DNA from: Actinomycetota bacterium
GTDB taxonomy: Bacteria; Pseudomonadota; Gammaproteobacteria; Burkholderiales; Rhodocyclaceae
DNA: 14,429 bases
Assembly (NCBI GenBank): GCA_050259815.1
Contig: JBLNBI010000222.1
Coordinates: forward strand, 1-14,429
Direction of reading: 5' to 3'
Part shown: positions 1 to 14,429 of the stretch, in pieces
Layout: every line of letters begins with the position of its first letter
Numbering within the stretch: the stretch's first letter is position 1
The notes under the pieces: model-generated
Database searches by the model: none
Seen by the model: only the letters and a program-made list of their open reading frames with translations
Told to the model about the DNA's origin: nothing
Made by a program: the position numbers and the translations under genes

Positions 1-71
1 ACGACGAAGCGGCCTATCTGGCGGCGATCAGGTAAATCCCCCTTTTCAGCCGGACGCGCGTCCGGCAGGTC

Positions 72-2246
72 ATGGGCCTCATCGTCAACCTGGCCTCCTA
101 CCTCTCCCAGCTGTCGCTGACCAATCTTCGCCTGAGGGAAAGCCAGGGGCAGATGGAGGCCCTGATCAACGCACTGCCGGACCCTATCTGGCTCAAGGAC
201 ACGGAGGGCCGTTTCCAGGCCTGCAACCGCGCCTTCGAGCGCATGCTCGGCAGTTCCGCCGACCGGATTCTCGGCAAGACCGACCACGATTTCTTTCCCG
301 AGGCGATCGCCCGGTTCTTCCGCAGCAAGGACGAAGAGGCGCTGGCGGCGGGCCAGCCTAGCAGCAACGAGGAGTGGATTCCCCTGGCTTCGACCGGAGA
401 ATCCATTCTCGTCGAGACGGTCAAGGCGCCCCTGCCGGGAATGACCGGCGAACCGGTCGGCGTCCTGGGCATTGCGCGGGACATCACCGAGCGCAAACAG
501 GCCGAAGATCATCTGCGCCTGATGTCCAAGGTCTTTTCCAACAGCGGCGAAGCCATCCTGATCACCGACTCGAACAACAGGATCCTGGCCGTCAACAAGG
601 AATTCACCAAGCTCACGGGTTATAGCCCGGAAGAGGTCTACGGACGGAACCCGAGCATGCTGTCCGCGGGGAAAGCCTCCCGCGAAGTGTATGAGGAAAT
701 GTGGTCTTCGCTGGCCGCCAACGACTACTGGCAGGGCGAACTCTGGGACCGCCGGAAGTCCGGCGATCCGTATCCGAAGCGTCTTTCCATCTCCGTGGTC
801 CGCGACGAACGGGGCAACGTCACCAATTACATCGGCCTGTTCCAGGACATCACCAAAACCAAGGCGGCCGAAGACAAGATCCGCCATCTGGCCCATCACG
901 ACGCCCTGACCGGCCTGCCCAATCGTTTCAGCCTGTACCAGCGGATGGAGCAATCCATCGCCTTTGCGCGACGCTTCGATAAACGGGTCGCCGTCCTGCT
1001 GATCGACCTCGACCGGTTCAAGTCCATCAACGACACCCTCGGCCACAACGTGGGCGATCAGTTGCTGATCCAGGTTGCCTCCCGCCTCAGTCAGTCGGTG
1101 CGGCAAACCGACATCGTCGCCCGCCTGGGCGGTGATGAATTCGTTATCGTCCTGACGGGAATCGAACTCGGCCGGCATGCGACCGAAATCGCCGACAAGA
1201 TCGTCCAGCAGATTTCCCTTCCCTACAGCATCGCCGGCCATGTGCTGCGCACTTCTCCCAGTGTAGGTATCTGCCTGTGCCCGGATGACGCTCTGGAGAT
1301 CAACGATCTGATCAAGAACGCGGACATCGCCATGTATCAGGCCAAGGCGCTCGGCCGCGGGAACTACCAGTGCTATACGGAAGGCATGCGGGCGGAGGTG
1401 GCCCGACGGGTCACCGCCGAAAAGGAATTGGAAGCCGCGCTGGACCAGGGCCAGTTCGTCCTGCATTACCAGCCGCAAATCGATCTGGCAACCGGCAGCG
1501 TCACCGGCATGGAAGCCTTGATCCGCTGGCAGCATCCAAGCCGCGGGCTGGTTTTTCCGGGGGACTTCATTCCCGTTGCCGAAGAGACCAACCTGATCAT
1601 CCCTCTGGGCAAGTGGGTACTCGAAGAAGCCTGCCGGCAGTTGAAAGATTGGCATCAGATGGGGCTGGCTCACCTCACTGTTTCGGTCAATCTCAGCGCC
1701 GTCCAATTCGAGGACATCGCCTTGCCGACTCTGGTAGCCAATGTGCTGGAGACCTGCGGACTGCCTCCCCACAGCCTCCATCTCGAAATTACCGAGTCGA
1801 TGGCCATGAGGCGTCCGGAAGACAGCATCCGCATGATGAACACCCTGGCGGATATCGGCGTGAAACTGGCCTTGGACGACTTCGGCACCGGCTACTCTTC
1901 TTTAGCCTATTTGAAGCTCTTCCCCCTGGATATCATCAAGATCGACCGGGCCTTCGTCAAAGATCTCGAAACCGACGAGAACAACGCGGCCATCTGCGAA
2001 ATGACCATGCTGCTCGCCCAGAAGCTGGGCAAGCGGGTAGTGGCCGAAGGGGTCGAAACCGAGGACCAGCGTCGATTCCTGTCGGAGATCGGCTGCCAGG
2101 AGATTCAAGGTTATCTCTACAGCAAGCCCTTGCCTGCGCCTCGGGCGGCGGCGTTCGCCGAAGGCTTTTCCGTGGCGGAAGCTTGCGACTTGGCTTCAGC
2201 GGATGTGCAACACTTCCCAGCGAAGTCGGTCCAATCGAAACCTTAG
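72..2246 (+). CDS. PAS/PAC-PAS-GGDEF-EAL c-di-GMP signalling protein (diguanylate cyclase/phosphodiesterase)
   Basis: 724-aa ORF. GGDEF motif intact (RLGGDEFVIV). EAL motif intact (EALIRWQHP), plus the DDFGTGYSSL and KIDRAFV EAL catalytic motifs. The N-terminal ~290 aa carry PAS-like repeats. Stop TAG at 2244-2246. Confidence 0.9.
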   Translation: MGLIVNLASYLSQLSLTNLRLRESQGQMEALINALPDPIWLKDTEGRFQACNRAFERMLGSSADRILGKTDHDFFPEAIARFFRSKDEEALAAGQPSSNEEWIPLASTGESILVETVKAPLPGMTGEPVGVLGIARDITERKQAEDHLRLMSKVFSNSGEAILITDSNNRILAVNKEFTKLTGYSPEEVYGRNPSMLSAGKASREVYEEMWSSLAANDYWQGELWDRRKSGDPYPKRLSISVVRDERGNVTNYIGLFQDITKTKAAEDKIRHLAHHDALTGLPNRFSLYQRMEQSIAFARRFDKRVAVLLIDLDRFKSINDTLGHNVGDQLLIQVASRLSQSVRQTDIVARLGGDEFVIVLTGIELGRHATEIADKIVQQISLPYSIAGHVLRTSPSVGICLCPDDALEINDLIKNADIAMYQAKALGRGNYQCYTEGMRAEVARRVTAEKELEAALDQGQFVLHYQPQIDLATGSVTGMEALIRWQHPSRGLVFPGDFIPVAEETNLIIPLGKWVLEEACRQLKDWHQMGLAHLTVSVNLSAVQFEDIALPTLVANVLETCGLPPHSLHLEITESMAMRRPEDSIRMMNTLADIGVKLALDDFGTGYSSLAYLKLFPLDIIKIDRAFVKDLETDENNAAICEMTMLLAQKLGKRVVAEGVETEDQRRFLSEIGCQEIQGYLYSKPLPAPRAAAFAEGFSVAEACDLASADVQHFPAKSVQSKP

Positions 2247-2424
2247 CCCATTGACATTATTGCGACTGAACAAGAAACTGCCCCTTCCCTTAAGACCAAC
2301 CACTTTCCACAAGGAGATTTCGATGCCTGCCACAGCCAACACCAAGGAAACAATGCGCTGAGACCGTAGGCATCGTGCTGCCCGGAACTCGCGCAAGGCG
2401 AATCCGGGCTGGGAAGGAGCGAAA

Positions 2425-2455
2425 CCCCTGGCCATTGCCGGGGGTTTTTGTTTTT
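2425..2455 (+). terminator. Rho-independent terminator (8-bp GC stem with one U-G, loop CAUU, then TTTTTGTTTTT)
   Basis: ccccuggc-cauu-gccggggg followed by a T-rich tract, read directly from the sequence. It lies 180 nt after the GGDEF-EAL stop and after a 12-codon ORF with a strong SD. Confidence 0.6.
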
Positions 2456-2523
2456 GGCTTTCCCTATCCATCCCGGATTCCAGAAAGAGCGGCCCCGCCG
2501 CTGCAAGAAATTCAGGAATCATC

Positions 2524-2679
2524 ATGGGAATACAAATTGAGTTGAACAAAGGTCGCGTGCCGGTCAAGGTCTGGACCCGCGACATCGAGCCGGACGCCAT
2601 CCGGCAATTGCTGAACGTCGCTTCGCTGCAGGTCGTGCATGGCCACACTCAGAAGCCAGTGCTCTGCGTGAAGGAGTGA
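2524..2679 (+). CDS. 51-aa ORF homologous to the N-terminus of RtcB (possible rtcB remnant or stand-alone N-domain protein)
   Basis: AGGA 6 nt upstream of ATG. MGIQIELNKGRVPVKVWTRDIEPDAIRQLLNVASL aligns with the N-terminus of the bona fide RtcB in this window, MTYQLQEVQNGKPIKLWTEGVPVEDDARVQLMKTAR. The shared pattern is G[KR]-P-[IV]K[LV]WT...P.-DA.-QL...A. Confidence 0.4.
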   Translation: MGIQIELNKGRVPVKVWTRDIEPDAIRQLLNVASLQVVHGHTQKPVLCVKE

Positions 2680-2682
2680 GCC

Positions 2683-2877
2683 ATGGCGACCAAGAAGACC
2701 GTCCTCATCCTGCCCCAGACCAAGCCTCGCAACCCGCTGCTGGTGCCCGGCCTGACCCGCCGTGCCGGCCCCCACGACAAGTCGCGCAAGGCCGTCCGCC
2801 AGCAGATGCGCCAGCGCACCCAGCAGTCTCTCGCCGCCCTGATGAACAGCGAGAAGGCTGAATTCGAAATCGACTAA
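2683..2877 (+). CDS. Small basic protein (64 aa), translationally coupled to the upstream RtcB-N-like ORF
   Basis: AAGGAG lies inside the last codons of the upstream ORF, 6 nt before ATG 2683. The protein is Lys/Arg/Gln-rich (MATKKTVLILPQTKPRNPLLVPGLTRRAGPHDKSRKAVRQQMRQRTQ...). A strong terminator follows. Confidence 0.5.
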   Translation: MATKKTVLILPQTKPRNPLLVPGLTRRAGPHDKSRKAVRQQMRQRTQQSLAALMNSEKAEFEID

Positions 2878-2883
2878 CCCTGC

Positions 2884-2910
2884 CCGCCCCGCCCTGGGGC
2901 GGCCTTTTTC
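2884..2910 (+). terminator. Rho-independent terminator (ccgcccc-gcccu-ggggcgg + CCTTTTTCTC)
   Basis: Perfect 7-bp GC stem plus a T-tract immediately after the 2683-2877 ORF. Confidence 0.7.
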
Positions 2911-2994
2911 TCAAGGAGAAAGCCATGAACCGACCGACTGCCCGACTTGTTCCGCACGCGCCATCGAACGCCGATCAATTTACGGAAACCCGAC

Positions 2995-3297
2995 ATGGAC
3001 CACCACGCTATCGAAGAAATCATCGCTTGCCTTCGGGGTGAGCGCACCGTCTATCCCTATTACCGAGACCGCTACAGCATCGGGCTGTTGCGCCAGTTGA
3101 GCCGCCACGGCCGCCGTGCCGAGCCCCTCAGTGTCGCGTCCCTGAAGAAATTCCTCTTCGCGCCGACGAGCGAGGTGCCGCCTTTCCTGGCGGAGGACAA
3201 GGAGGTGCGCCAAGTGCTGCGGAGGAATCCGGAGATCGGGTTCTTTTGCCTGCGTCCGGATAGCTCGGTGCAGACAGGCGGGCCGCTGATGGACTAA
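2995..3297 (+). CDS. Hypothetical protein (100 aa from ATG 2995; ORF track starts at TTG 2947)
   Basis: High-GC ORF with no recognisable motif. A strong SD (AAGGAG 2914-2919) with ATG 2925 opens a different frame, a 38-codon ORF ending at 3041. The true start is therefore ambiguous. Confidence 0.45.
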   Translation: MDHHAIEEIIACLRGERTVYPYYRDRYSIGLLRQLSRHGRRAEPLSVASLKKFLFAPTSEVPPFLAEDKEVRQVLRRNPEIGFFCLRPDSSVQTGGPLMD

Positions 3298-3562
3298 CGA
3301 ACCAGCCCCAGCCTGCCCACGGCGCTCGCCAGCAATCCGCGGCCGGTGCTGCTGCATTGCCGCAGCGGGTACCGGACTAAATTAACAATAGGCTGCTTGT
3401 CGGCCTAAGCCGAACTTGGGCCTCTAGCCAGAATCGGGCGGCTATGCGCCAGTTACCAGCCGCTGATGACGGTTAATGGCCGCTTTCGTCATCGGCATGG
3501 GGGCAGCACCCGACCCAAACCGGAAGTTGCGACCTTTAGAAAGCGGACGGTCTGGAACGTGG

Positions 3563-3605
3563 AGCTAACCGGTCTGCGCGGCTTTTCGCGCAGCTCCGGT
3601 TGAGC
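3563..3605 (-). other. Short attC-like palindrome after last cassette (GCTCAAC...GTTAGCT on - strand), or a simple hairpin
   Basis: On the - strand: GCTCAAC-cgg-AGCTGCGCG-aaaag-CGCGCAG-accg-GTTAGCT. The inverse core matches RYYYAAC. The core is degenerate and the element is only 43 bp, which is short. Confidence 0.3.
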
Positions 3606-3611
3606 GACGGG

Positions 3612-4229
3612 TTAGGTATTTGCGCGAGAAAACTCTGCATGATCGTACAGTGTGAGTTGAGCCGCCAATGCAAGCTCCTTGGCTGTGGAGCTTTCTGATG
3701 CTCTGACAATTAACGAGCAATAGGAATCCGAGTTTGTCTCGAAGTGCAGAAGCGCAAAGTCTCTATCGGCCAACCAGTCGGACAAGGCCAGTAATGCTTC
3801 GGGAACTGAGCGGAATTCCGTTTCGCAATCATGCTCCCAGCGCTGGTTGATGCCGAATGTGGCCAGAATCTCTGAAACCTGCCAAACGATTTCCTCGCGT
3901 GCCTTCCAATCCAACTGGATAAACACCCATTTCCCACGCCGTTGGCCTTCTTCACCGGACATGACTTCGCTCAACGCATCGAACATGTCTTCGGAGTCAT
4001 CTAGAGCTCGTTTCGCAACTCGGCACAAGCGTTGAACTTCACTCTTGTTCAGCTGGGCCGTTGCAAATTGAAGGAAGTTCTGTAGGTTCTTTTTCTTTCG
4101 CCATAACTCGGCCTTGTTCGTCGGATGCAGTAGTTCCCAAATCTCGTCGTCAGGCACATTGGTATCAATAGGCTCTGCCGGGGTTGTGAGATTCCTGTTG
4201 AGCAGCTTGCCTAGAAACCTAAGCATCAT
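3612..4229 (-). CDS. Cassette ORF A, hypothetical protein (205 aa)
   Basis: ATG lies 5 nt after core site GTTAGGT. Lower GC. No recognisable catalytic motif. Confidence 0.6.
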   Translation of the reverse strand: MMLRFLGKLLNRNLTTPAEPIDTNVPDDEIWELLHPTNKAELWRKKKNLQNFLQFATAQLNKSEVQRLCRVAKRALDDSEDMFDALSEVMSGEEGQRRGKWVFIQLDWKAREEIVWQVSEILATFGINQRWEHDCETEFRSVPEALLALSDWLADRDFALLHFETNSDSYCSLIVRASESSTAKELALAAQLTLYDHAEFSRANT

Positions 4230-4233
4230 GAAT

Positions 4234-4290
4234 ACCTAACGATTGAATTAAGCGGCGCGGTAAGGCATCCGCTGGAATGCCGGGTTGGGC
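4234..4290 (-). other. attC-like site (57 bp): R'' GCCCAAC ... R' GTTAGGT (- strand)
   Basis: Inverse core GCCCAAC lies 31 nt after the stop of ORF B. Core GTTAGGT lies 5 nt before the ATG of ORF A. The 3' half (CCGCTTAATTCAATCGTTAGG) is conserved with the other two sites. Confidence 0.55.
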
Positions 4291-4320
4291 CTGAGCCAGA
4301 GCATGGCTGAGCAACGGCCG

Positions 4321-5061
4321 TTACCAGAGCCGCCACCACGGGCGCTTGCGCGCTCCTGCGCCTACGCCTTGGTCAAGCTGAGAAACGCTGGTGTCGGTTT
4401 GCTGCGCATCCCTGGTATCAGGTTTGGAGCAATGCCAGTAATAGTCGCCACCTAGATATCCAGCATCCAGCGCCCGGGAGGAATCGAGGCGAGCGGCATG
4501 GTCCAGTTCCGCGGGCGATCGCGAATAGAAGTCTTCTGCGCTAAACGGTTGGAACCCCTCGTGGTATCCAGCCCAGAACTTCAATAGCTCCATTGGCGGT
4601 AGCTGGGACTTGAAACAGGCTGAAAACTTGTCTGCTGCCTCGGCGATGTACCCCATGAGAAGCACCTCAATAGGGTTCATGGCGAGATACGGCAATGGAA
4701 GCTCCGCCAAGCCTTCGCAGGCGCGCTGCCAATACCCTTCGCCTAAGGCGGTATCGCCCGCCATCTCCTGGAAAGTCTCAAGGCTGGCTTGCAGGTTGTG
4801 CCATGCGGTCGCCACGTCAATGCAAGGAAGGTGAACGGTCAGCTCATCCGGCCCATTCTCTTGTCCCCAATATTCCAGTGGAACGTGCACTTCAGTTAGC
4901 TGCGCGCCGCGGAAACAACAGAACCATGGAAGCGGGACGCGATACGACACTTCTGCGATTTCTGCGTAGTTGGCTTGCGGGCCTTGCCGCAATGCTGCCT
5001 GCAGGGAATAGGGGTCGCCGGTCAGAGTTGGCGTATTCAGTAGGTACGCACGATTTGCCAT
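4321..5061 (-). CDS. Cassette ORF B, hypothetical protein (246 aa)
   Basis: Lower-GC ORF. A 70-nt leader follows the attC core and contains a 9-codon uORF (MKSNLTNDL, 5070-5099). Confidence 0.6.
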   Translation of the reverse strand: MANRAYLLNTPTLTGDPYSLQAALRQGPQANYAEIAEVSYRVPLPWFCCFRGAQLTEVHVPLEYWGQENGPDELTVHLPCIDVATAWHNLQASLETFQEMAGDTALGEGYWQRACEGLAELPLPYLAMNPIEVLLMGYIAEAADKFSACFKSQLPPMELLKFWAGYHEGFQPFSAEDFYSRSPAELDHAARLDSSRALDAGYLGGDYYWHCSKPDTRDAQQTDTSVSQLDQGVGAGARKRPWWRLW

Positions 5062-5130
5062 GTCAGACCCTACAGATCATTGGTTAAGTTCGACTTCATC
5101 TGTTCCGCTTCAAGGAAGCGCGACCCTGAA

Positions 5131-5223
5131 GCCCAACGATGGAGGTAAGCGGACTGCCGCGCGAGGCGCAACAGGAAGGCCAAGGCGGGTGTCCGGCAGG
5201 TCCGCTTGACCGTAGGCTTAGGC
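5131..5223 (-). other. attC-like site (93 bp): R'' GCCTAAG (degenerate) ... R' GTTGGGC (- strand)
   Basis: ~90-bp direct repeat of the 5709-5798 element. Shared segments are AACGATGRARGTAASCGGNCTGCCGCGCGAGGCG and GGCAGKTCCGSTTGAC. It contains an internal imperfect inverted repeat, aagcggactgccg / cggcaggtccgctt. Confidence 0.55.
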
Positions 5224-5253
5224 AATGACTTAGTCATGTGGTGAACTGCCGGG

Positions 5254-5703
5254 CTATACACGACGAAACAGAAGATCAAAAGAGATTCCGGGAACGCCAT
5301 GCATCGCTGTTAAGCAGTTGCCGTCGTCACGCCAAATATAGAGCTGCTCCCCGACTTCTTGGCCGGATGGGTATAGCGGAAATATCCATGAACGTCGGGC
5401 CTTAACGATACTAAGAGCTGACGCTTCGTATGTTCCTGCAAAGAAGTAAATTGATCCGTTCTCTGCATGTCCTGTACCCGATTCCTTGGCTTCGGAAAGG
5501 CTGGCCGCATCAAGGGATTCTGTGAATTTCCAAAAAGGGAAAGAGCTGGTCGTGTTGTCTTTCTCTGAGCGCGAAACGCTGATCCACTTTCCGTCCGGAT
5601 AAAAGCGAAAGAAAATCGTATTCCAGCCACGTAGCAACCCGCCTCCATGCATTTCTTCCCAATAGGACGGACGTGACAAGTAATAGCCGTTTGTGTGAGG
5701 CAT
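5254..5703 (-). CDS. Cassette ORF C, hypothetical protein (149 aa from ATG 5703; ORF track extension to 5754 would run through the attC)
   Basis: ATG (MPHTNGYY...) lies 6 nt after core GTTAGGC. The longer ORF-track start overlaps the repeat element and is unlikely. Confidence 0.55.
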   Translation of the reverse strand: MPHTNGYYLSRPSYWEEMHGGGLLRGWNTIFFRFYPDGKWISVSRSEKDNTTSSFPFWKFTESLDAASLSEAKESGTGHAENGSIYFFAGTYEASALSIVKARRSWIFPLYPSGQEVGEQLYIWRDDGNCLTAMHGVPGISFDLLFRRV

Positions 5704-5708
5704 GCTGT

Positions 5709-5798
5709 GCCTAACGATGAAAGTAACCGGCTGCCGCGCGAGGCGGGCAGCCATGACGACGACGGTTCTCGGCAGTCCGGTTGACTGGATTGTTAGGC
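5709..5798 (-). other. attC-like site (90 bp): R'' GCCTAAC ... R' GTTAGGC, perfect inverse/core pair (- strand)
   Basis: GCCTAAC starts 9 nt after the TAG of ORF D. GTTAGGC ends 6 nt before the ATG of ORF C. Internal inverted repeat caaccggactgccg / cggcagccggtt. Confidence 0.6.
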
Positions 5799-5804
5799 TG
5801 CTGG

Positions 5805-6203
5805 CTATTTGAACTCAAAGCGAACGTTTTTAACGACCTGATGCTTACCCCAGAAGAAGTTGCAAACCCTTGCAACCTCTGCTCCGTCCTTACTTTCGGG
5901 AACGCACCCGCCCTTGATGGTTACCGATTTTTCCCCTTGCTTTGACAGCGGGAACTCCATTGATATGCCTTCAGGGATGACATGTTCAAGCTGCACGTTT
6001 TCGGAATAGTCATCAACGAGGGCGAATATCATGACCTTGTCGGCTTTGAGCGTGTAAAGGTCATGTTGGAACGCGGCCCCTGGCAAGAGACACATTTCAA
6101 TGACCGATTTCTCAATAGTCTGCTGCTTGCATTGTGGTGGCTCGGCAGCCTGAACGCTAAATGCAGCACATGCCAACCAGACCGAGAAAATTGAATATTT
6201 CAT
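5805..6203 (-). CDS. Cassette ORF D, small secreted protein (132 aa, signal peptide MKYSIFSVWLACAAFSVQA, 4 Cys)
   Basis: GAGGA SD 5 nt before ATG. N-terminal hydrophobic signal sequence with an AXA-like cleavage site. Confidence 0.65.
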   Translation of the reverse strand: MKYSIFSVWLACAAFSVQAAEPPQCKQQTIEKSVIEMCLLPGAAFQHDLYTLKADKVMIFALVDDYSENVQLEHVIPEGISMEFPLSKQGEKSVTIKGGCVPESKDGAEVARVCNFFWGKHQVVKNVRFEFK

Positions 6204-6241
6204 GAATTCCTCAATAAGAAGGTGAGAGAGGGAATAAAGCA

Positions 6242-6308
6242 GTCTAACTTCGTTTTAGGGAGACTGTTTTGACGGATAACTTCGGCGCCTGTCTCCCTAA
6301 CTTAGGAC
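6242..6308 (-). other. attC-like site (67 bp): GTCCTAAG-TTAGGGAGAC-(26 nt)-GTCTCCCTAA-aacgaa-GTTAGAC (- strand)
   Basis: 10-bp perfect inverted repeat (6255-6264 / 6291-6300) nested inside a degenerate inverse core and a GTTAGAC core. The core lies ~39 nt upstream of the ORF D ATG. No ORF lies upstream of it, so it marks an ORF-less cassette or the edge of the array. Confidence 0.5.
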
Positions 6309-6785
6309 TGTCATATCGCCGGAAACCGGCATGATTACGGGCTTTTGGAAACTTAGGCGAGGTGACCATGGCTGCTAAAAATGCGTGAAAAGCGGCGCGC
6401 CAGTACATTAGCATAACGCTCATCTTGTATGTCTGCTATGAGCAGCAACAGCCAAGGTCCGCTCCTGGCCGGAAGCGCCTGTTGGGGTTCCTTCCCCCAA
6501 AGCAGACAGTGATCTAAACCAGTCCTATTCAACGACCGCGATCGGGCTCTTACTTAAGACGTGTGCCCCCGGCCAGGAGCCGCCCGTCACTATCTCTACT
6601 GAGCAACCATCCAAACGACCGCGGTGCTGAGCGAACTGCCAGTCAAGGCGGATAATTCGGCCTCATGTTGAGATCCACATAAGGCCGACATTCCACCCGT
6701 GAAAAGTCGTCTTGGATGGAAAGCGTTACTGCGATTCGATCGATAGCCAGACTCCGCTCGTGAGACTGATGTATCTTTGCCGCCC

Positions 6786-7379
6786 ATGAACTACCTGGCT
6801 CATGGCTTTCTTGCCGGTTCCGTTCCTGCGTTGGTTGTCGGTGGGGTTGCCGGCGACTGGGTCAAAGGACCGCTGCCCGGCCTCCTGCCGCCGGATTTGG
6901 CGCAGGGCGTGGCGCTGCACCGGGCCATCGACGCCTTCGCGGAAACCCATCCCGCCTTTTGCCGTAGCCGGGCGAGGATGTCGGCCGGGCGCCGTCGTTA
7001 TGCGGGGGTTCTGGTTGATATCTTCTACGATCATCTGCTGGCCCGTGACTGGTCAGAATTCAGCGATGAAGGGCTCAATGCCTACTGTTCAGGGGTGTAT
7101 CGGCAGATCGGGCTTCGCCTGCATGAGTTGCCCGAGTCGTCTCAAGGCGCGTTAGCGCTGATGGCCCGCGAAGACTGGCTACAGAGCTATCGTGACCTGA
7201 CCGGCATTGCCGATGTTCTGGACCGCATGTCGCAGCGGGCAAGACAGCCCAATCCGCTGGCCGGCGGCGAGCAGGAGTTCATGGCCGATCCTTTGGGTTT
7301 CTCCGATGATTTTCGCTGCTGGCTCGAGGATGCCAAGCGCTTCACCGAAGGCTGGCGGGCCAACGTTTTCGGATTGTGA
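6786..7379 (+). CDS. acpH: Acyl carrier protein phosphodiesterase (AcpH family)
   Basis: MNYLAHGFLA... N-terminus. Also HRAIDAF, DIFYDHLLARDWSEF and WLQSYRDL blocks that match the E. coli AcpH pattern (MNFLAHLHLA...HRRID...DVMWDHFLSRHWSQL...WLVRYRDM). Confidence 0.75.
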   Translation: MNYLAHGFLAGSVPALVVGGVAGDWVKGPLPGLLPPDLAQGVALHRAIDAFAETHPAFCRSRARMSAGRRRYAGVLVDIFYDHLLARDWSEFSDEGLNAYCSGVYRQIGLRLHELPESSQGALALMAREDWLQSYRDLTGIADVLDRMSQRARQPNPLAGGEQEFMADPLGFSDDFRCWLEDAKRFTEGWRANVFGL

Positions 7380-7470
7380 CGGCGGTACGAGCACAGGGCT
7401 CGCATCACTTAAGCTAATCAATACCGAATCGGCCGCTCAATGCTACGAGTAGCCGCTGAAGAGCCGCTTA

Positions 7471-7497
7471 CCGACGTATTGCCGACGTATTGCCGAC
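7471..7497. repeat. Tandem 11-bp repeat CCGACGTATTG x2.5
   Basis: ccgacgtattg ccgacgtattg ccgac in the convergent acpH/rtcA intergenic region. An adjacent direct repeat AGCCGCT-gaag-AGCCGCT lies at 7451-7468. Confidence 0.8.
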
Positions 7498-7620
7498 TGA
7501 ATTGACCTGCAGACCGGATGGCCGTAAAGGCCGAGCACCCGACAATCAACCAAAGCATCCCTGCATGCTGCGAAACGGGTGGCGAGGACACAGCGCGGCG
7601 ACCATCTCAAGCCCTTTCCT

Positions 7621-8646
7621 TCAGGCCACCGCAACGCTATACCCCGTATCCCCCTCCTCGCACCGAAACTCCACCGCCAGAAACTTCTCGATCACTTCGA
7701 TATTGGTGTGCAGATGCGAGGACAGCGTCGTCGTCGTGAAACTGCCCTTCCCCGCTAGGGCCAGGGGAAGGAGTAGCTGGTCGGCAAGGTGCTCGCCGAC
7801 CGCGCCAGCCCCATCACGGAATTGGCGCACCCGCTTGGCGACGCCATCGGCGACGCGCTCCGCCGGCAGGCCCCGCTCGCCAAAGCCGGTGAAGACTTCG
7901 GCAAAACCGGGATAGACCAGATCGACCATGAGCGCATTGCCCGGCCCTTCACGGGAGGGCAATTGGCGCAGTTGCCGCTCGACCGGCCCCAACTGGGCGG
8001 CCAGGCGGTCGAGTTCCCGGAGGGCCACGTCGCCCGGCACCCCGGCAACCACAGCCGTCGCCCGGATTTCCTGCAGTTCGCCGCGAGTCTCCAGCGACAG
8101 GGCCGACAGGCTTCCACCGCCACCCGCCAGCGGCCGGATGCTCGCCTTCACCTCGCCGCCCCCGGCCGGATAGAAACCGTGGCGGAGCAGTTCGATGTCC
8201 ATATCGACGCCCATGGCGCGAACCAGCGGCAGCCAGGAGCGGATCAGGAAGTCTGCCGGCGGCGCAGCCGGGTTGTGGGTGCCGCCGCTCACGGTCAGGG
8301 TGGCCGGCCCGTCGGCGAACCACAGCGCCGGCGCGACGGTTTGCAGGACCAGGGTGCAGCTCCCCGCCGTACCGATGGCGAAGCGGTAATCGCCGCCCCG
8401 AATGCGGCCCGGCGCAAAGGAGAGCGTCTGCGAGCCCGGCGCCGCGCCCTCCACCTCGGCCCCGCAAACCTCCGCCGCCGCTTTGACGGCGGTCAGGTGC
8501 TGGCGCAGCAGCCCCGGCTTGGCGCGCCCGGCACGGATCTTCTCGATGCGAAAGGGCGTGCCCGTGATCATCGAGAGGCTCAAGGCCGTGCGCAGGATCT
8601 GGCCCCCGCCCTCTCCCCGGGAGCCGTCCAGTTCTATCGTTTGCAT
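7621..8646 (-). CDS. rtcA: RNA 3'-terminal phosphate cyclase RtcA
   Basis: 341 aa. N-terminus MQTIELDGSRGEGGGQILRTALSLSMITGTPFRIEKIRAGRAKPGL, which includes the GGGQILR pattern of RtcA. AAGGAAA SD. Last gene of the operon. Confidence 0.9.
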   Translation of the reverse strand: MQTIELDGSRGEGGGQILRTALSLSMITGTPFRIEKIRAGRAKPGLLRQHLTAVKAAAEVCGAEVEGAAPGSQTLSFAPGRIRGGDYRFAIGTAGSCTLVLQTVAPALWFADGPATLTVSGGTHNPAAPPADFLIRSWLPLVRAMGVDMDIELLRHGFYPAGGGEVKASIRPLAGGGGSLSALSLETRGELQEIRATAVVAGVPGDVALRELDRLAAQLGPVERQLRQLPSREGPGNALMVDLVYPGFAEVFTGFGERGLPAERVADGVAKRVRQFRDGAGAVGEHLADQLLLPLALAGKGSFTTTTLSSHLHTNIEVIEKFLAVEFRCEEGDTGYSVAVA

Positions 8647-8682
8647 GTTGCTTGTTTCCTTCTTGTTGTTATGTAGCCGAAC

Positions 8683-9507
8683 CTAGTCCGGTGAACGGGA
8701 GAGCACGGTTTCCATCAGGTAGGCGTCCAGCAATGCCGCGTCGCCCTCCGGCTTGCGGAAATCCGGCAGGCGGTCGGCGCAGGCCCGTTCCAGCTCGCCC
8801 GCTATGAAGGCGTGGATGGCCGGCCAGCGGGGACCGCATTCGGCTTCGCCGGCCCGCATCTTCACCGCCAGCAGTCCGTTGATCTCGTCGAGCAAGACAG
8901 GGTCGTCCACCATGGCCGAAGCCAGATCGGCAAAGCGCATGGGCGGCATGCCCAGGCCCCGGTCGATCCACTGCACCGCCAGGAGCGGACGCAGGACGTA
9001 GAGGTACTTCTTGAGGCGCACCGCCTCGCCCAGCAGATGCTCGCGGAAGTTCTTCCGGGCCATGGCGAGGTAGTGGTAGCGCCCCCGCTGCGGCGAAAAG
9101 AAGGCCGGCGCCAGGGAGCGCAGGCGCCCGGCGGCCGCCGGGTCTTCCCGATAGACGAGGGGCGAATCGAGCCATTCCAGCAGGGTCGGGTTGGAGCGGC
9201 GCAGCAGGCGCAGGGCCTTACGCAGCTCCCAGCCGCCGACATCGAGTTCGTCGCTGATGGGCCGTTCGATCACATCCCGCTTCGCTTCTACCCCAAGGTA
9301 CCAGGGCAGGCGATGCACGTAGATGAAGCGCACGTCGTAATCGCTGTCCGGCGACGCGAAGCCCCAGCCCCGGCTGCCGGATTCGCAGGCGAAGAGGACG
9401 CGCACGTCGTGCTCGGCTTCAATCTCCGCCAGGGTTTCCATCACCCGCTGCCGCACCGCCGGTTCGACCGGGTGGGCGCTCAGCACGGCGGGTTTTTCGA
9501 TCTTCAT
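8683..9507 (-). CDS. RtcB-associated predicted nucleotidyltransferase (Pol-beta superfamily, GS...DxD motif)
   Basis: FACESGSRGWGFASPDSDYDVRFIY is a classic GS-x9-DxD minimal nucleotidyltransferase signature. The start codon is 3 nt after the rtcB stop, so it is translationally coupled. Confidence 0.7.
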   Translation of the reverse strand: MKIEKPAVLSAHPVEPAVRQRVMETLAEIEAEHDVRVLFACESGSRGWGFASPDSDYDVRFIYVHRLPWYLGVEAKRDVIERPISDELDVGGWELRKALRLLRRSNPTLLEWLDSPLVYREDPAAAGRLRSLAPAFFSPQRGRYHYLAMARKNFREHLLGEAVRLKKYLYVLRPLLAVQWIDRGLGMPPMRFADLASAMVDDPVLLDEINGLLAVKMRAGEAECGPRWPAIHAFIAGELERACADRLPDFRKPEGDAALLDAYLMETVLSRSPD

Positions 9508-9510
9508 TTC

Positions 9511-10728
<1,218 letters not shown>

Positions 10729-10796
10729 GATTAATCCTCTTTCAATGCCGCCCGCATGTTAGCGAGGCCGGCGTAATTCGTCTTCAATTGTCGTGT

Positions 10797-11939
10797 CTAG
10801 GTCCATGCCTGGATTTTCACCAGACCGCTCAACACCTGGTCCAGGCCACCGAAGACCGAGATACGGTCGATGCGTTCGGCCACCCGCTCCAGGGTTTCCA
10901 GCTCCTTCAGGCGCAGGGCCGTCGGGTTGTCTTCCATCACCTTGGCGGTGTTCAGCAGCGAACGGGTCGCTGCGGTTTCCTCGCGGCGGCGGATGACGTT
11001 GGCTTCGGCCGACTTCTCGGCCTCCACCACCTGGGCCAGGATCGCCTTCATCTCCCCCGGCAGCACGATGTCTTTGACGCCGACGCTGCCCACCTCGATG
11101 CCGAAGCCCTGGAGCTTCTGCTTCACATGGGCGCCCACCACCTCGTCGATGATCTGCTTGTTCTCCAGCAGTTCATCCAGGGCCCGGGTGCCGACGGCGG
11201 CGCGCAGGCCGAATTGCAGCTCCCGGTAGAGATGCTCGGCCGGCTTGGTCAGCTTCTCGTAGGCGAGCAGCACGTCGGTGAAGCGCCAGGTCGCCGCCAG
11301 GTTGAGCCGCAATCCCACCTTGTCCCGGGACAGGATTTCCTGGCCGGTCACCTCCATGGCCTGGAGGCGCATATCCACCAGCTCCACCTGCACGTCGCGG
11401 TTGAAGCGCCAGAAGACTTCGACTCCCGGCTGCATCAAGCGCTCCACCTTGCCATCGACGCGCAGCACGCCCACGTGATAGGCCGGCACCTGGGCGACCA
11501 GGAGCGCACACGCACCGGCGACCGGACGGCCGCGCAGGGCCGGCTGCATGAGGTGGGACGCCACTTCCGGCGCCACGCCGTAGCCGCGGCGCAGATCGAC
11601 GCGCTCCAGCCGGTGCCGGAGCAGCCCCTTCCAGAAGAAGCGCCGGCTGGCCGGGGGCAGGACCTCCACCAGGACATCGTTCTCGTAGCGCAATCCCGCC
11701 TCGTCCTCGCTCAATTCCATGCACTCGAAGCTCGAGGCGGCGGTTTCCGGTTCGTTTTGCAGCAGGTAATCCACGGTGGCGACATCGGTCATCGGCGCAT
11801 CCAGCTTCCAGGTAACCAGGGAAAGCCGCGACATCGAGTCGATGAAATAGTGGCGGCCGGCATTCAGGATGCGCTCGTAATCGCCATCGCGCAGCAATAC
11901 GCCCTTTTCATTCTTTTTCACCACAAAACGCTTCAACAT
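10797..11939 (-). CDS. SPFH/band-7 (slipin/flotillin-like) domain protein with unique ~170-aa N-terminal region; first gene of rtc operon
   Basis: 380 aa from ATG 11937-11939 with a strong SD (TAAGGAGAAG). The C-terminal half carries SPFH hallmarks (…KDIVLPGEMKAILAQVVEAEKSAEANVIRRREETAATRSL…ALRLKELETLERVAE). The ORF-track extension to 12104 runs into the ~80% GC leader and is not credible. Confidence 0.7.
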   Translation of the reverse strand: MLKRFVVKKNEKGVLLRDGDYERILNAGRHYFIDSMSRLSLVTWKLDAPMTDVATVDYLLQNEPETAASSFECMELSEDEAGLRYENDVLVEVLPPASRRFFWKGLLRHRLERVDLRRGYGVAPEVASHLMQPALRGRPVAGACALLVAQVPAYHVGVLRVDGKVERLMQPGVEVFWRFNRDVQVELVDMRLQAMEVTGQEILSRDKVGLRLNLAATWRFTDVLLAYEKLTKPAEHLYRELQFGLRAAVGTRALDELLENKQIIDEVVGAHVKQKLQGFGIEVGSVGVKDIVLPGEMKAILAQVVEAEKSAEANVIRRREETAATRSLLNTAKVMEDNPTALRLKELETLERVAERIDRISVFGGLDQVLSGLVKIQAWT

Positions 11940-11976
11940 TTTTCTTCTCCTTAGTCTTCCCACATTTACATTGTTT

Positions 11977-12187
11977 GCCGGCGGGCGCCGGCCCGGCGGG
12001 CCTCCGGGACGGCGCAGGCGGGGGAGCCGGCCGGCGGGTGCGGCGCCGATCCCCAACACCCCTCCAGCGCCTTGCGCCGGAGCCGGCGGTAGACCGTGCC
12101 CCACCCTGCCGGCCCGCCCTGCCGCTTGCGCGGGCCAGGAACCGGCCGGGCCGGCGGCGGGTGCTTGCGCATTCCGCAGCCGGCGGG
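11977..12187 (-). repeat. GC-rich (~80%) leader segment with >=5 copies of GCCGGCGG(G)
   Basis: Occurrences at 11977, 11992 (variant), 12030, 12072, 12152 and 12179. The segment lies between the tRNA-like elements and the SPFH start, inside the predicted sigma54 transcript. Confidence 0.6.
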
Positions 12188-12217
12188 TACTGCTGTATTC
12201 ACTGTCGTGACAGGACA

Positions 12218-12291
12218 GTTTTGGAGCGGGAATCGAACCCGCGACCGACCGCTGGTTAGGCGGTTGCTCTACCCGACTGAGCTATCCAAAC
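12218..12291 (-). ncRNA. tRNA-like element 1: near-complete cloverleaf (anticodon AAC) with G1:A72 mismatch, C37, no CCA; tRNA mimic or pseudogene
   Basis: The - strand RNA is GUUUGGAUAGCUCAGUCGGGUAGAGCAACCGCCUAACCAGCGGUCGGUCGCGGGUUCGAUUCCCGCUCCAAAAC. It has a canonical D-arm (GCUC-AGUCGGGUA-GAGC with G18G19). It has a canonical T-arm (GCGGG-UUCGAUU-CCCGC). The anticodon stem is ACCGC/GCGGU with loop CUAACCA. The acceptor is 6/7 paired and AU-rich. It is followed by UGU, not CCA. Confidence 0.55.
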
Positions 12292-12342
12292 GGAGCGTGG
12301 AGGGAATCGAACCCTACGGACCCGCCGACCGGGCACGCACTC
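12292..12342 (-). ncRNA. tRNA-like element 2: mini acceptor + D-like hairpin + T-arm, no anticodon arm; abuts element 1
   Basis: The - strand RNA is GAGUGCG-UG-CCCG-GUCGG-CGGG-UCCG-UAGGG-UUCGAUU-CCCUC-CACGCUC-C. The T-loop is UUCGAUU. The acceptor-like stem is GAGUGCG/CACGCUC, 6/7 paired with one U-G. Its 3' discriminator is immediately followed by G1 of element 1. Confidence 0.4.
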
Positions 12343-12464
12343 GACCACAACTTGCTGCGGCGGCATACGCGAAAGCGACAGAAGCGAATCCGGCTTGCGC
12401 GCACCGGCGGGGTCTCACCCCCTGCCCGTGGGCCATTGCAGCGACGTTGCGATCGCCTTATGCA

Positions 12465-12482
12465 TTGCGAGATGCATGCCAG
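12465..12482 (-). promoter_or_regulatory. Sigma54 (-24/-12) promoter for the SPFH-rtcB-NTase-rtcA operon
   Basis: The - strand reads cTGGCATGCATCTCGCAa against consensus TGGCACG-N4-TTGCW. GG and GC are spaced exactly 12 nt apart. The predicted TSS is ~12455, giving a ~515-nt leader. It is divergent from rtcR, as expected for the RtcR-dependent rtcBA promoter. Confidence 0.65.
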
Positions 12483-12573
12483 GTGGGAATCCGCCGGCCA
12501 GCGTCAATGTACCCAATTGATTTGAAACGAATATTCAATTCGCCGCCAATTTCCTCGCCCGAAAGGGAGGCCA

Positions 12574-12602
12574 TTGAATATAGAATTTGCGATAACTATT
12601 TA
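12574..12602 (+). promoter_or_regulatory. Candidate sigma70 promoter of rtcR (TTGAAT-17-TATTTA)
   Basis: -35 at 12574-12579, 17-nt spacer, -10 at 12597-12602. The ATG is at 12619, so the leader would be short with a weak SD. Confidence 0.3.
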
Positions 12603-12618
12603 TCTTTCTGGATAATCC

Positions 12619-14208
12619 ATGAAGCGCAACGTAGTCATTGGCTTCCTCGGCACCCAACTCGATTACGGCGGCAAGGGAGTGGCCCGCTGGGAAAAATGGC
12701 GCCCGACCGTGGCCCTCTGCCAACAGGAAGACCTGGTGGTGCATCGTCTGGAACTGCTCCACGACGCCCGCAGCCGGGGACTGGCGGAGCGCATCGTCAA
12801 CGACATCGCGGCGGTATCCCCGGAAACCGAAGTGCGCCGGGTGGAGCGGGAATTGCGCGACCCCTGGGATTTCGAGGAGGTCTACACCTCCCTGCACGAC
12901 TTCGCCCGCGCCTACCCGTTTGACCCCGAGAACGAGGATTACCTCATCCACATCACCACCGGCACCCATGTGGCGCAAATCTGCTGGTTCCTGCTGGCCG
13001 AGGCCCGCTACCTGCCGGCGCGGCTGGTGCAGACCTCGCCGCCCCGCAAGAAGGAGACGGCCAACAGCATCGGGCGCTACGAGATCATCGACCTGGACCT
13101 GTCCCGCTACAACCAGATTGCCCAGCGCTTCGCCCGGGAGCACGACGACAACGTTTCCTTCCTCAAATCCGGCATCGCCACCCGCAACCCGGCTTTCAAC
13201 CGCATGATCGAGCGCATCGAACAGGTGGCCGGCCGCTCCCGGGCGCCCCTGCTGCTGATCGGGCCGACGGGGGCGGGCAAGTCCTTCCTCGCCCGCCGGG
13301 TGTATGAATTGAAGCGCCAGCGGCAGCGGCTTTCCGGGCGCTTCATCGAGGTCAACTGCGCCACCCTGCGGGGCGATTCCGCCATGTCGACACTCTTCGG
13401 CCACGTCCGCGGCGCCTTCACCGGGGCCCAGACGGAACGGCCGGGCCTGCTGCGTGCCGCCGACGGCGGGCTGCTCTTCCTGGACGAGATCGGCGAACTG
13501 GGCCTGGACGAGCAGGCCATGCTCCTGAAGGCCATCGAGGAAAAGCGCTTCTTCCCCTTCGGCGCCGACCGGGAGGCGGAAAGCGACTTCCAGCTCATCG
13601 CCGGCACCCACCGCGACCTGCACCGCTGGGTGGCCGAGGGACGTTTCCGGGAAGACCTCTACGCCCGCATCAACCTGTGGACCTTCGACCTACCCGGCCT
13701 CGCCGCCCGGCCGGAGGACATCGAGCCCAACCTGGATTTCGAACTGGAACGCTTCGCCCGGGAACAGGGCGAGCAGGTGCGCTTCAATGTCGAAGCCAAA
13801 CGCCGCTACCTGGCCTTCGCCGGCAGCCCGGAGGCCCGCTGGGCGGGCAATTTCCGCGAACTCACCGCCTCCGTCACCCGCATGGCCACCCTGGCCGAAG
13901 CCGGGCGCATCACCGAGGACAACGTGCGGGAGGAAATCGAGCGCCTGCGCGCCACCTGGACGGACGGCAAGCCTCCCGACATCGTCACCGAGGTGCTGGG
14001 CGACAAGGCCGACGAACTGGACCTCTTCGACCGCTGCCAACTCGCCGCCGTCATTGCCGCCTGCCGCACTGCCGACAGCCTCTCCGCCGCCGGCCGGCAG
14101 CTTTTCGCCATCTCCCGGCAGGGGAAGAAGCAGCCCAACGACGCGGATCGGCTACGCAAATACCTAGCGCGGTTTGGGCTGGATTTCGAGAGAGTGGCGG
14201 GGAGGTGA
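12619..14208 (+). CDS. rtcR: Sigma54-dependent transcriptional activator RtcR (CARF domain + AAA+ + HTH)
   Basis: 529 aa. N-terminal CARF-like region (MKRNVVIGFLGTQLDYGGKGVARWEKWRPTVALCQQEDL...). Walker A GPTGAGKS. GAFTGA motif (HVRGAFTGAQ). The overall sequence closely parallels E. coli RtcR. Confidence 0.95.
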   Translation: MKRNVVIGFLGTQLDYGGKGVARWEKWRPTVALCQQEDLVVHRLELLHDARSRGLAERIVNDIAAVSPETEVRRVERELRDPWDFEEVYTSLHDFARAYPFDPENEDYLIHITTGTHVAQICWFLLAEARYLPARLVQTSPPRKKETANSIGRYEIIDLDLSRYNQIAQRFAREHDDNVSFLKSGIATRNPAFNRMIERIEQVAGRSRAPLLLIGPTGAGKSFLARRVYELKRQRQRLSGRFIEVNCATLRGDSAMSTLFGHVRGAFTGAQTERPGLLRAADGGLLFLDEIGELGLDEQAMLLKAIEEKRFFPFGADREAESDFQLIAGTHRDLHRWVAEGRFREDLYARINLWTFDLPGLAARPEDIEPNLDFELERFAREQGEQVRFNVEAKRRYLAFAGSPEARWAGNFRELTASVTRMATLAEAGRITEDNVREEIERLRATWTDGKPPDIVTEVLGDKADELDLFDRCQLAAVIAACRTADSLSAAGRQLFAISRQGKKQPNDADRLRKYLARFGLDFERVAGR

Positions 14209-14242
14209 CGGTGATCACCCCGAAGTGTTATCCCCTGAAGGG

Positions 14243-14271
14243 GCAACAAAAAACCCGCACTAGGGCGGGTT
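14243..14271 (-). terminator. Rho-independent terminator for tRNA-Leu (stem AACCCGC/GCGGGTT, loop, U-tract on - strand)
   Basis: On the - strand: aacccgc-cctagt-gcgggtt followed by TTTTTTGTTG. It lies 30 nt downstream of the tRNA 3' end. It probably also ends rtcR transcription bidirectionally. Confidence 0.65.
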
Positions 14272-14298
14272 TAACTTACTGCTTCGAACTACACCGTG

Positions 14299-14383
14299 GT
14301 GCCCAGGAAGGGACTCGAACCCCCACGCCTTTCGGCGCCAGAACCTAAATCTGGTGCGTCTACCAATTTCGCCACCTGGGCAG
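14299..14383 (-). tRNA. tRNA-Leu (anticodon UAG), 85 nt with long variable arm and encoded CCA
   Basis: The - strand RNA is GCCCAGGUGGCGAAAUUGGUAGACGCACCAGAUUUAGGUUCUGGCGCCGAAAGGCGUGGGGGUUCGAGUCCCUUCCUGGGCACCA. The acceptor GCCCAGG/CCUGGGC is perfect. Anticodon loop UUUAGGU. Discriminator A followed by CCA. Confidence 0.85.
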
Positions 14384-14429
14384 GCGGCGCGCATTCTACC
14401 ACCCTCCGGGCATTCGCCCATATACTTGC

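Follow-up and report, generated by a model that had tools for sequence, protein, structure and literature searches.

Why do bacterial RNA-repair operons carry RNAs shaped like tRNAs? The question dates from 2013-2016, and we know of no function shown either for YrlA with Ro60 or for b7a-tRNA with Band-7 proteins. It is raised again by a 14,429-nt stretch of DNA (contig JBLNBI010000222.1 of GenBank assembly GCA_050259815.1, positions 1 to 14,429; hereafter the window), in which an initial annotation, made from the letters alone, placed two abutting tRNA-like elements in the leader of an rtcB operon. We find rtcB as described, but the first gene of the operon, overlooked at that stage, encodes a slipin of the SPFH/Band-7 family (PF01145); in a Pfam scan of the open reading frames (ORFs) of the window the operon reads slipin, RtcB, RlaP, RtcA, with RtcR encoded divergently alongside. 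The annotation had also stated that the window holds no Ro60/TROVE gene, and the Pfam scans of its ORFs agree: no TROVE domain was found, and no unassigned ORF of that size remains. We conclude that the full-length element (element 1) is very probably a member of the b7a-tRNA family, a non-decoding mimic lying between rtcR and a slipin-rtcB repair operon. Together with its smaller neighbor (element 2), it would form the middle of a leader of ~515 nt that is, as a whole, predicted to be one conserved structured RNA. Our analysis narrows the question of why RNA-repair operons carry tRNA mimics, since the selected parts are the elbow and the acceptor/T minihelix. The tRNA mimic itself was already predicted in 2016; the extended architecture we could not find described, and it is new as far as the literature we found goes.

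Identity of element 1

ARAGORN calls element 1 a tRNA-Val(aac) gene at 12218-12291(-), and the Rfam tRNA model RF00005, which the initial annotation had proposed as a check, matches it at full length (1-71) with 52.9 bits, above the gathering score of 29 (E = 3.5e-9 for the whole window). The details that the annotation had listed are all present in the sequence: D-loop AGUCGGGUA, T-loop UUCGAUU, U33, 5-bp anticodon and T stems, G1.A72, the pyrimidine C37 and the absence of CCA. Both elements lie ~115 nt into the leader, and the slipin start is 279 nt downstream of element 1.

Related loci were collected by scanning one genome per species with a slipin alignment, which gave 80 loci, sampled down to 63% identity, from Rhodocyclales, Thiobacillaceae, Gallionellaceae, Burkholderia, Ralstonia, Pseudomonas and others. 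Enough upstream sequence was available for 76 of the 80; statistics for element 1 are based on 64 sequences and those for the flanking domains on 43. In most loci ARAGORN reports a 'tRNA' that lies 250-340 nt upstream of the slipin start, with the anticodons CAT, AAT, GAT, AAC, GTT, ACG, AAG and others or with none assignable; a pair of T-loop motifs, 66-83 nt from each other, also recurs at fixed relative positions.

In the 64-sequence alignment of element 1 the T stem is paired in 100% of cells (compensatory changes at 2/5 pairs), the almost invariant D stem in 99% and the anticodon stem in 97% (4/5 pairs compensatory). Acceptor pairs 2-7 are paired in 83% of cells, with G5:C68 replaced by C:G in Burkholderia. 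Pair 1:72, which is G.A in the window, is mostly mismatched and forms in 27%; the acceptor has just 4-6 bp in many Rhodocyclales. Of the 64 'anticodon' loops, 11 have 4 nt, 3 have 5 nt, 18 have 6 nt, 31 have 7 nt and 1 has 15 nt, with GAAA, GCAA and UUCG tetraloops among them. The 31 seven-nucleotide loops show 8 different triplets; at position 37, 16 of them have C and 15 have A. One of the 64 sequences has CCA after the acceptor, and a hairpin abuts position 73. The variable loop, the diverse 'anticodons' and the absent CCA argue for selection on the elbow and the acceptor/T minihelix, and not on the anticodon end; element 1 can be regarded as a predicted shape mimic that does not decode. 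The annotation had described it as spoiled exactly where a tRNA must function. The features it named are there, but the AAC anticodon and C37 are not conserved and are incidental to an unconstrained loop. At one locus (L022:3700-3730) an additional GGGC-CAAG-CCCG hairpin, formed by 15 inserted nucleotides, sits in the anticodon arm, which again points to free variation at this end of the mimic.

The b7a-tRNA family was proposed by Burroughs and Aravind (2016). As cited in a bioRxiv preprint (10.1101/312249), it is a predicted non-coding RNA strongly resembling tRNA, found beside Band-7 and RtcB genes in some bacteria, which occasionally swaps with YrlA/Rsr. Element 1 has the same attributes, namely a tRNA-like cloverleaf, an adjacent Band-7/SPFH gene (in all related loci) and an RtcB-centered repair neighborhood, and we see no difference between it and the described b7a-tRNA. 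The difference lies around it: for the abutting mini-tRNA, the 5' domain and the 3' rod presented below we found no published description in the literature, in which the 2016 study is represented through the citing preprint alone. The annotation's idea of a Ro-independent RNA resembling Y RNA agrees with the published b7a-tRNA hypothesis of a Band-7 counterpart of YrlA/Ro60; it is accordingly not new, and it was reached without notice of the Band-7 gene.

Pseudomonas aeruginosa PAO1 carries a homologue annotated as tRNA-Arg PA4581.1, between rtcR (PA4581) and PA4582-PA4585. It has no CCA, and its level by quantitative reverse transcription PCR (qRT-PCR) is about half that of canonical tRNAs (PMC13637947, a 2026 paper). 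The connection runs through P. paraeruginosa (L073), which has the same rtcR-leader-slipin-rtcB layout and an element 1 called tRNA-Arg(acg), so that PA4581.1 is probably homologous by way of this locus.

Many Rhodocyclaceae copies of element 1 (e.g. L028:3634-3708) combine a C1.A72 mismatch (31/64 sequences) with a CAU triplet (16/31 seven-nucleotide loops). This superficially recalls initiator tRNA; the anticodon stem is without three consecutive G-C pairs. The combination is probably a relic of an ancestor resembling tRNA-Met or tRNA-Ile.

Element 2 and the module borders

The acceptor strand of element 2, GUGCGUG, pairs with CACGCUC at 6/7 positions; the element further includes a hairpin of 4 bp whose loop contains GG, and its T arm repeats GGGUUCGAUUCCC of element 1 exactly. 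When MAFFT and RNAalifold were applied to element 2 alone, just the T stem was recovered (96.9% paired in the 64-sequence alignment), the middle hairpin being variable in length, and we used an alignment-free test of own versus foreign partners instead. The acceptor forms 6-7 bp in 66 of 71 sequences, which have 41 different 3' strands, and at least 6 of the 7 positions pair with the own partner in 92% and with foreign partners in 24%. Acceptor and T arm pairing in homologues thus supports the annotation's picture of an acceptor/D/T mini-structure without an anticodon arm. A full cloverleaf takes the place of the mini-tRNA in Pseudomonas sp. (L054) and P. nitroreducens (L071), scoring 52-56 bits in Rfam, while in one Gallionellaceae genome element 2 has lost its T arm.

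The modules are packed closely. Helix P0 of the 5' domain, element 2, element 1 and the following hairpin are joined by linkers of 1, 1 and 0 nt in the window; at other loci the linkers have 1-3 nt. That hairpin, CUGUC/GACAG, is paired in 94.6-98% and shows compensatory changes at 5/5 pairs in the 64-sequence alignment and at 3/5 in the 43-sequence alignment. Over the tandem module, 84.8% of cells are paired versus 36-50% with slid partners, and 0/500 shuffles match the observed values. The covariation check that the annotation had called for in related rtcR intergenic leaders has therefore turned out positive, with compensatory changes in the stems of the tandem mimics. The single-sequence minimum free energy fold offers a different structure, a long Y-RNA-like stem in which the 5' part of element 2 pairs with a downstream ACCCGCCGGCUGCGG and encloses both T arms. 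We rejected it; its pairing is not conserved, and the homologues favor the mini-tRNA fold.

The leader as a larger structured RNA

The tandem that the annotation had described is real, but the two modules are just the middle of a ~515-nt leader that is structured throughout. In order, the leader consists of a 5' three-way-junction domain, the mini-tRNA, the full mimic, the hairpin, a 3' rod (~208 nt here) and a free ribosome-binding site, and conserved blocks run from promoter to ribosome-binding site in the whole-leader alignment. In RNAalifold the 5' domain has 26 pairs, 18 of them with compensatory changes, and 94.5% of its cells are paired versus 34-51% with slid partners; the rod has 43 pairs, 32 with compensatory changes, and 93.8% of its cells are paired versus 33-45%. 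For each domain 0/500 shuffles match. Helices P0 and P0' of the 5' domain were read from the whole-leader fold and by eye, and covariation in P0 is weak (7.1 bp with own versus 6.3 bp with foreign partners), so that P0 rests mainly on conservation. At the base of the rod, ACCCGCCGG pairs with CCGGC just ahead of the ribosome-binding site. Repeated CCCGCCGG boxes were considered as protein-binding repeats and discarded, as they are strands of covarying helices of the 5' domain and the rod. In the window and 14 homologous loci, no Rfam 15 family matched the leader beyond tRNA and a sub-threshold YrlA match.

The annotation had called the sigma54 promoter well matched. By itself the match TGGCATGCATCTCGCA is not above chance (4 matches with at most 2 mismatches in the window versus 7.25 expected), but a GGCAYG-N4-YCGCW box recurs at the same relative position in the window and in 64 related loci, where its distance upstream of the slipin start is 460-590 nt (mostly 500-570), and in the window RtcR is encoded divergently next to it. 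The predicted transcription start, ~12455, is the first base of helix P0. This arrangement leads us to infer that the RtcR/sigma54 promoter drives transcription of the leader; on the leader strand no sigma70-like promoter was found. A terminator-like site was likewise not found in 11800-12700, and the alignment shows no helix that would sequester the ribosome-binding site, which sits in an unpaired, length-variable A-rich tail. Without a riboswitch-like expression platform, the leader is not a classical cis switch.

Natural variants among related loci

The tandem is present in 71 of the 76 loci, element 1 alone in three (L015, L073, L076) and neither in two (L075, L077). The gene order RtcR-leader-slipin-RtcB is found in 58/80 loci, and in several of the others the contig stops short. 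RlaP turned up in ~40% of loci and RtcA is variable; a link between loss of the mimics and loss of RlaP or RtcA was considered and dropped, as we found no correlation across loci. A metagenome scan with the 5'-domain pattern gave no further members: among the at least 120 matches listed, all were chance matches, and none adjoined slipin or RtcB. The related loci offer ready-made genetic controls, as the number of mimics ranges from two full ones through one and a half and one to none, and among the hosts are bacteria that can be cultured (P. nitroreducens, Burkholderia cenocepacia, P. aeruginosa and P. brassicae).

In Sphaerotilaceae-type Burkholderiales (Roseateles, Aquabacterium, Albitalea and metagenome-assembled genomes [MAGs]), 3 to 9 canonical tRNA genes stand upstream of the leader and slipin on the same strand (L067:1713-2886, L078:2497-2872, L080:2466-2807, L072:48-969; a single gene in L074:2716-2791), and they score 43-66 bits in Rfam where scanned (L067, L078). 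RtcR is encoded divergently at L072 and not at L067, L074, L078 or L080. At L067 and L080 an NtrC-type sigma54 activator lies further upstream instead, and at L078 the genes for RlaP and RtcA come before the array. One possibility is that the arrays are spare tRNAs with a link to RNA repair, another that the leader forms the tail of a tRNA precursor.

Proposed function and alternative explanations

SPFH proteins form large oligomers. Our best explanation overall, to which we give a probability of roughly 45%, is that the b7a-tRNA in its structured leader acts as an RNA cofactor or scaffold of the slipin-RtcB repair module. On firing of RtcR, the leader RNA would be made together with the repair proteins. 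The mimics, which retain the shape parts of tRNA alone (the D-loop/T-loop elbow and the acceptor/T minihelix, with a variable anticodon end), may dock this RNA to proteins that recognize the tRNA body, namely the slipin oligomer, RtcB and RlaP. The leader RNA would then be the cofactor or scaffold of a Band-7 ribonucleoprotein, a functional counterpart of YrlA-Ro60, and RNase P-type cuts at the 1-3-nt module borders may release it from the mRNA. We infer processing, protein binding and the scaffold role alike from the sequences compared here, and docking of the shape mimics to the operon proteins as the mechanism is put forward tentatively. RlaP and RtcB act on cleaved tRNAs (PMC12776372; PMC7790460), so that tRNA-shaped RNA is what the repair proteins handle, and the partner swaps between b7a-tRNA and YrlA/Rsr argue for functional equivalence. 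A wider proposal, for which we would give somewhat less than even odds, is that b7a-tRNA is an exchangeable module of a ~500-nt RNA that begins at the RtcR/sigma54 start site and forms the core of a slipin (SPFH-cage) RNA-repair particle, a bacterial, Ro-independent analogue of Y-RNA or vault-type ribonucleoproteins. This predicted ~500-nt RNA, rich in compensatory changes, is kept across Rhodocyclales, Burkholderiaceae, Gallionellaceae and Pseudomonas.

Several observations weigh against a cofactor or scaffold. In P. brassicae and P. aegrilactucae (L075:3540-3760 and L077:3540-3760), plain hairpins replace both mimics, and the 5' domain, rod, RtcR, slipin, RtcB and RlaP are kept; in P. paraeruginosa (L073:3590-3650) a plain hairpin replaces element 2. 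The mimics are thus dispensable in some lineages. The level of PA4581.1 was unchanged when Rtc proteins were induced (PMC13637947), which either argues against strict co-transcription or reflects cross-reaction of the qRT-PCR with tRNA-Arg. As of 2018 the b7a-tRNA family was described as 'not validated experimentally' (bioRxiv 10.1101/312249). An AlphaFold2 model of the slipin from a shallow 12-sequence alignment has a predicted local distance difference test (pLDDT) score of 52.5, and its match to the major vault protein (E = 2.4e-4, template modeling [TM] score 0.24) is not evidence; its fold matches to stomatin, HflK/C and the major vault protein add nothing beyond Pfam and lend no support to an RNA-binding surface. 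Finally, the position in the 5' untranslated region and the 1-3-nt linkers fit a role in cis equally well.

Such a cis role, which we consider rather unlikely, would make the modules processing or stability signals: the slipin-rtcB mRNA would owe its 5' end and half-life to cuts by RNase P and RNase Z/E at the module borders and would be protected by the flanking domains, and the freed pieces would have no function of their own, in a form of tRNA punctuation as in MALAT1-mascRNA. Besides the position downstream of the sigma54 start site and the short linkers, it is favored by the conserved parts themselves, as the acceptor/T minihelix and the elbow are RNase P determinants, and by the Sphaerotilaceae-type loci, where the leader directly follows genuine tRNA arrays like the last member of a tRNA precursor. 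The Mycobacterium smegmatis YrlA, moreover, is cut by RNase P and receives CCA (PMC4201824). However, the ~320 nt of extra covarying structure in the 5' domain and the rod go far beyond what a processing signal needs, and there is neither a terminator nor a helix over the ribosome-binding site. An element 1 whose acceptor has 4-6 bp in many Rhodocyclales and whose 1:72 pair is mismatched in 73% would also be a poor RNase P substrate, and the two species without modules keep the remaining leader.

The T-loop or the acceptor stem is where some Burkholderia CdiA-CT toxins cut. The mimics might bait tRNA-targeting toxins as a decoy or sentinel, either by sequestering them or by being cut, in the latter case with the resulting cyclic-phosphate fragments feeding the CARF domain of RtcR in a feed-forward induction; this we consider doubtful. 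The nearly invariant T-loop, D-loop and acceptor would suit toxins aimed there, but most known tRNA toxins aim at the anticodon loop, which is unconstrained, has 4 to 15 nt and is a tetraloop in many genomes; this weakens the anticodon-nuclease version of the decoy that the initial annotation had suggested. tRNA fragments that end in a 2',3'-cyclic phosphate activate RtcR, and a role as competitive inhibitor has been suggested for YrlA's tRNA-like domain, but Salmonella YrlA is not cleaved by the inducing nuclease (PMC7790460). PA4581.1 RNA is detectable without induction (PMC13637947). A leader whose sigma54 promoter is silent before activation, however, would not be a first sensor without another promoter, and no sigma70-like one was found on the same strand. 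The loss of the mimics from two Pseudomonas species speaks against bait as well.

YrlA itself, working with a Ro60 encoded elsewhere in the genome, is very improbable as an explanation. YrlA (RF02553, from rsr-yrlBA-rtcBA operons) resembles the leader in being a non-decoding tRNA mimic with D and T arms, in an RtcR-controlled RtcB operon and with a proposed role as the cofactor of a scaffold protein. It is, however, permuted (T arm, closed acceptor hairpin, D arm), has a Ro60-binding stem in place of the anticodon stem, measures ~100 nt and needs Ro60, whereas the leader has two unpermuted folds. The Rfam YrlA model, which the annotation had suggested running, does match across the element 2 T arm and the element 1 D arm, and the single-sequence fold has a long stem around both modules, but the match has 26.8 bits (E = 0.0018, 751 nt searched), far short of the gathering score (69), and neither the UCCA/UGGA pairing nor the long stem is conserved in homologues, in which both canonical folds strongly covary. 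At the gathering score YrlA was found neither in the window nor in the 14 homologous loci. For the conserved bacterial Y-RNA motif GNCGAA(N0-1)G (Chen et al. 2014, PMC4201824), no GNCGAA occurs in 11940-12455 on either strand, and no rsr gene lies in the window. The order of T arm (element 2), acceptor strands and D arm (element 1) at 12242-12336(-) is that of the permuted YrlA domain. This shared order and the shared arm consensus account for the weak match, which is not conserved; speculatively, YrlA may have arisen from a tandem of such mimics.

That element 1 is a genuine tRNA-Val(AAC) gene or a functionless decaying pseudogene, as the ARAGORN and Rfam calls and the tRNA-Arg label of the P. 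aeruginosa homologue would have it, is scarcely credible: it holds the same position in 74/76 genomes of Rhodocyclales, Burkholderia, Ralstonia, Gallionellaceae and Pseudomonas, with compensatory stems yet no conserved anticodon, a loop of 4 to 15 nt, no CCA and a mismatched 1:72 pair, which together indicate selection for shape and neither decoding nor neutral decay. The annotation had foreseen that a normal tRNA gene in related genomes would mark this one as decayed; the related loci instead keep the covarying, non-decoding mimic.

For the proposed cofactor or scaffold of the slipin-RtcB module, two further known systems offer comparison. The vault combines a cage protein of SPFH fold (the major vault protein, with its SPFH-like shoulder), the TROVE-domain protein TEP1 and a small structured vault RNA. 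The likeness is one of analogy alone, an SPFH protein with a structured RNA, and TROVE and SPFH as alternative RNA partners; vault RNAs are not tRNA mimics. The mascRNA of MALAT1 resembles element 2 in having an acceptor, a small D-like hairpin and a T arm, with the anticodon arm reduced or missing, and in lying within a longer transcript. It differs in being eukaryotic, at the 3' end of a long non-coding RNA and with demonstrated RNase P and RNase Z processing, where processing of the leader is predicted, and there is no sequence relationship (Rfam mascRNA match weak, 15.1 bits, E = 4.8).

Annotation and further features of the window

Coordinates of the leader domains and of the flanking repair genes are collected in Table 1. 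Current annotation treats the larger covarying RNA as a 'tRNA gene' plus an empty intergenic region. The elements are registered as tRNA-Val, Met, Ile or Arg genes, and the slipin ORF is sometimes stretched into the leader. The GC-rich leader of the window holds long spurious ORFs of this kind, one a 55-codon in-frame extension of slipin starting with GTG at 12104 (11940-12104, -) and the other 275 aa on the opposite strand (12096-12923, +). Database slipin homologues with lengths of 475-525 aa (P0011, P0017) point to gene callers that at times include leader RNA in the slipin gene.

Table 1. Leader features and repair genes of the window, listed in the direction of leader transcription, with rtcR last
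Feature	Position	Strand	Basis
Sigma54-type promoter TGGCATGCATCTCGCA (GG at -24, GC at -12)	12466..12481	-	Consensus match and positional conservation
5' domain: P0 12455-12446/12351-12342; P0' 12442-12438/12358-12354; three-way junction core 12434-12362	12342..12455	-	RNAalifold
Element 2, mini-tRNA (48 nt): 7-bp acceptor, short GG-loop hairpin, T arm, no anticodon arm	12293..12340	-	Pairing, homologues
Element 1, full-length tRNA-like cloverleaf, very probable b7a-tRNA homologue	12218..12291	-	ARAGORN and Rfam RF00005
Hairpin CUGUC-loop-GACAG, abutting the element 1 3' end in the CCA position	12202..12218	-	Alignments
3' rod: base helix 12184-12179/11977-11982; GCAA-capped hairpin 12175-12159; long arm 12156-12115/11986-12028, variable tip	11977..12184	-	RNAalifold
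A-rich unpaired tail with ribosome-binding site AAGGAG (11952-11947), slipin ATG at 11939	11940..11976	-	Sequence; no conserved pairing in alignment
Slipin (SPFH/Band-7) gene, first in operon	10797..11939	-	Pfam PF01145, E = 3.5e-31; homologues titled 'slipin family protein'
rtcB, RNA ligase	9511..10728	-	Pfam PF01139, E = 1.8e-131
rlaP, nucleotidyltransferase	8683..9507	-	Pfam PF10127, E = 1.4e-95
rtcA, RNA 3'-phosphate cyclase	7621..8646	-	Pfam PF01137 and PF05189
rtcR, divergent sigma54 activator with CARF-type RtcR domain	12619..14208	+	Pfam PF06956, E = 7.2e-90; PF00158

Elsewhere in the window, the neighbors of the operon are apparently unrelated to it: a PAS-GGDEF-EAL protein (72-2246), a DUF6630 protein (3612-4229) and an acyl carrier protein phosphodiesterase (6777-7379), with ORFs lacking a Pfam match at 4321-5061, 5254-5754 and 5805-6203. 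A genuine-looking tRNA-Leu(TAG) gene (14297-14381, -; Rfam 54.6 bits) lies just past the 3' end of rtcR on the opposite strand. The source MAG carries the NCBI label 'Actinomycetota bacterium'; every operon protein is 72-90% identical to homologues from Rhodocyclales, Thiobacillaceae and Accumulibacter, and the contig is probably mis-binned or misclassified.

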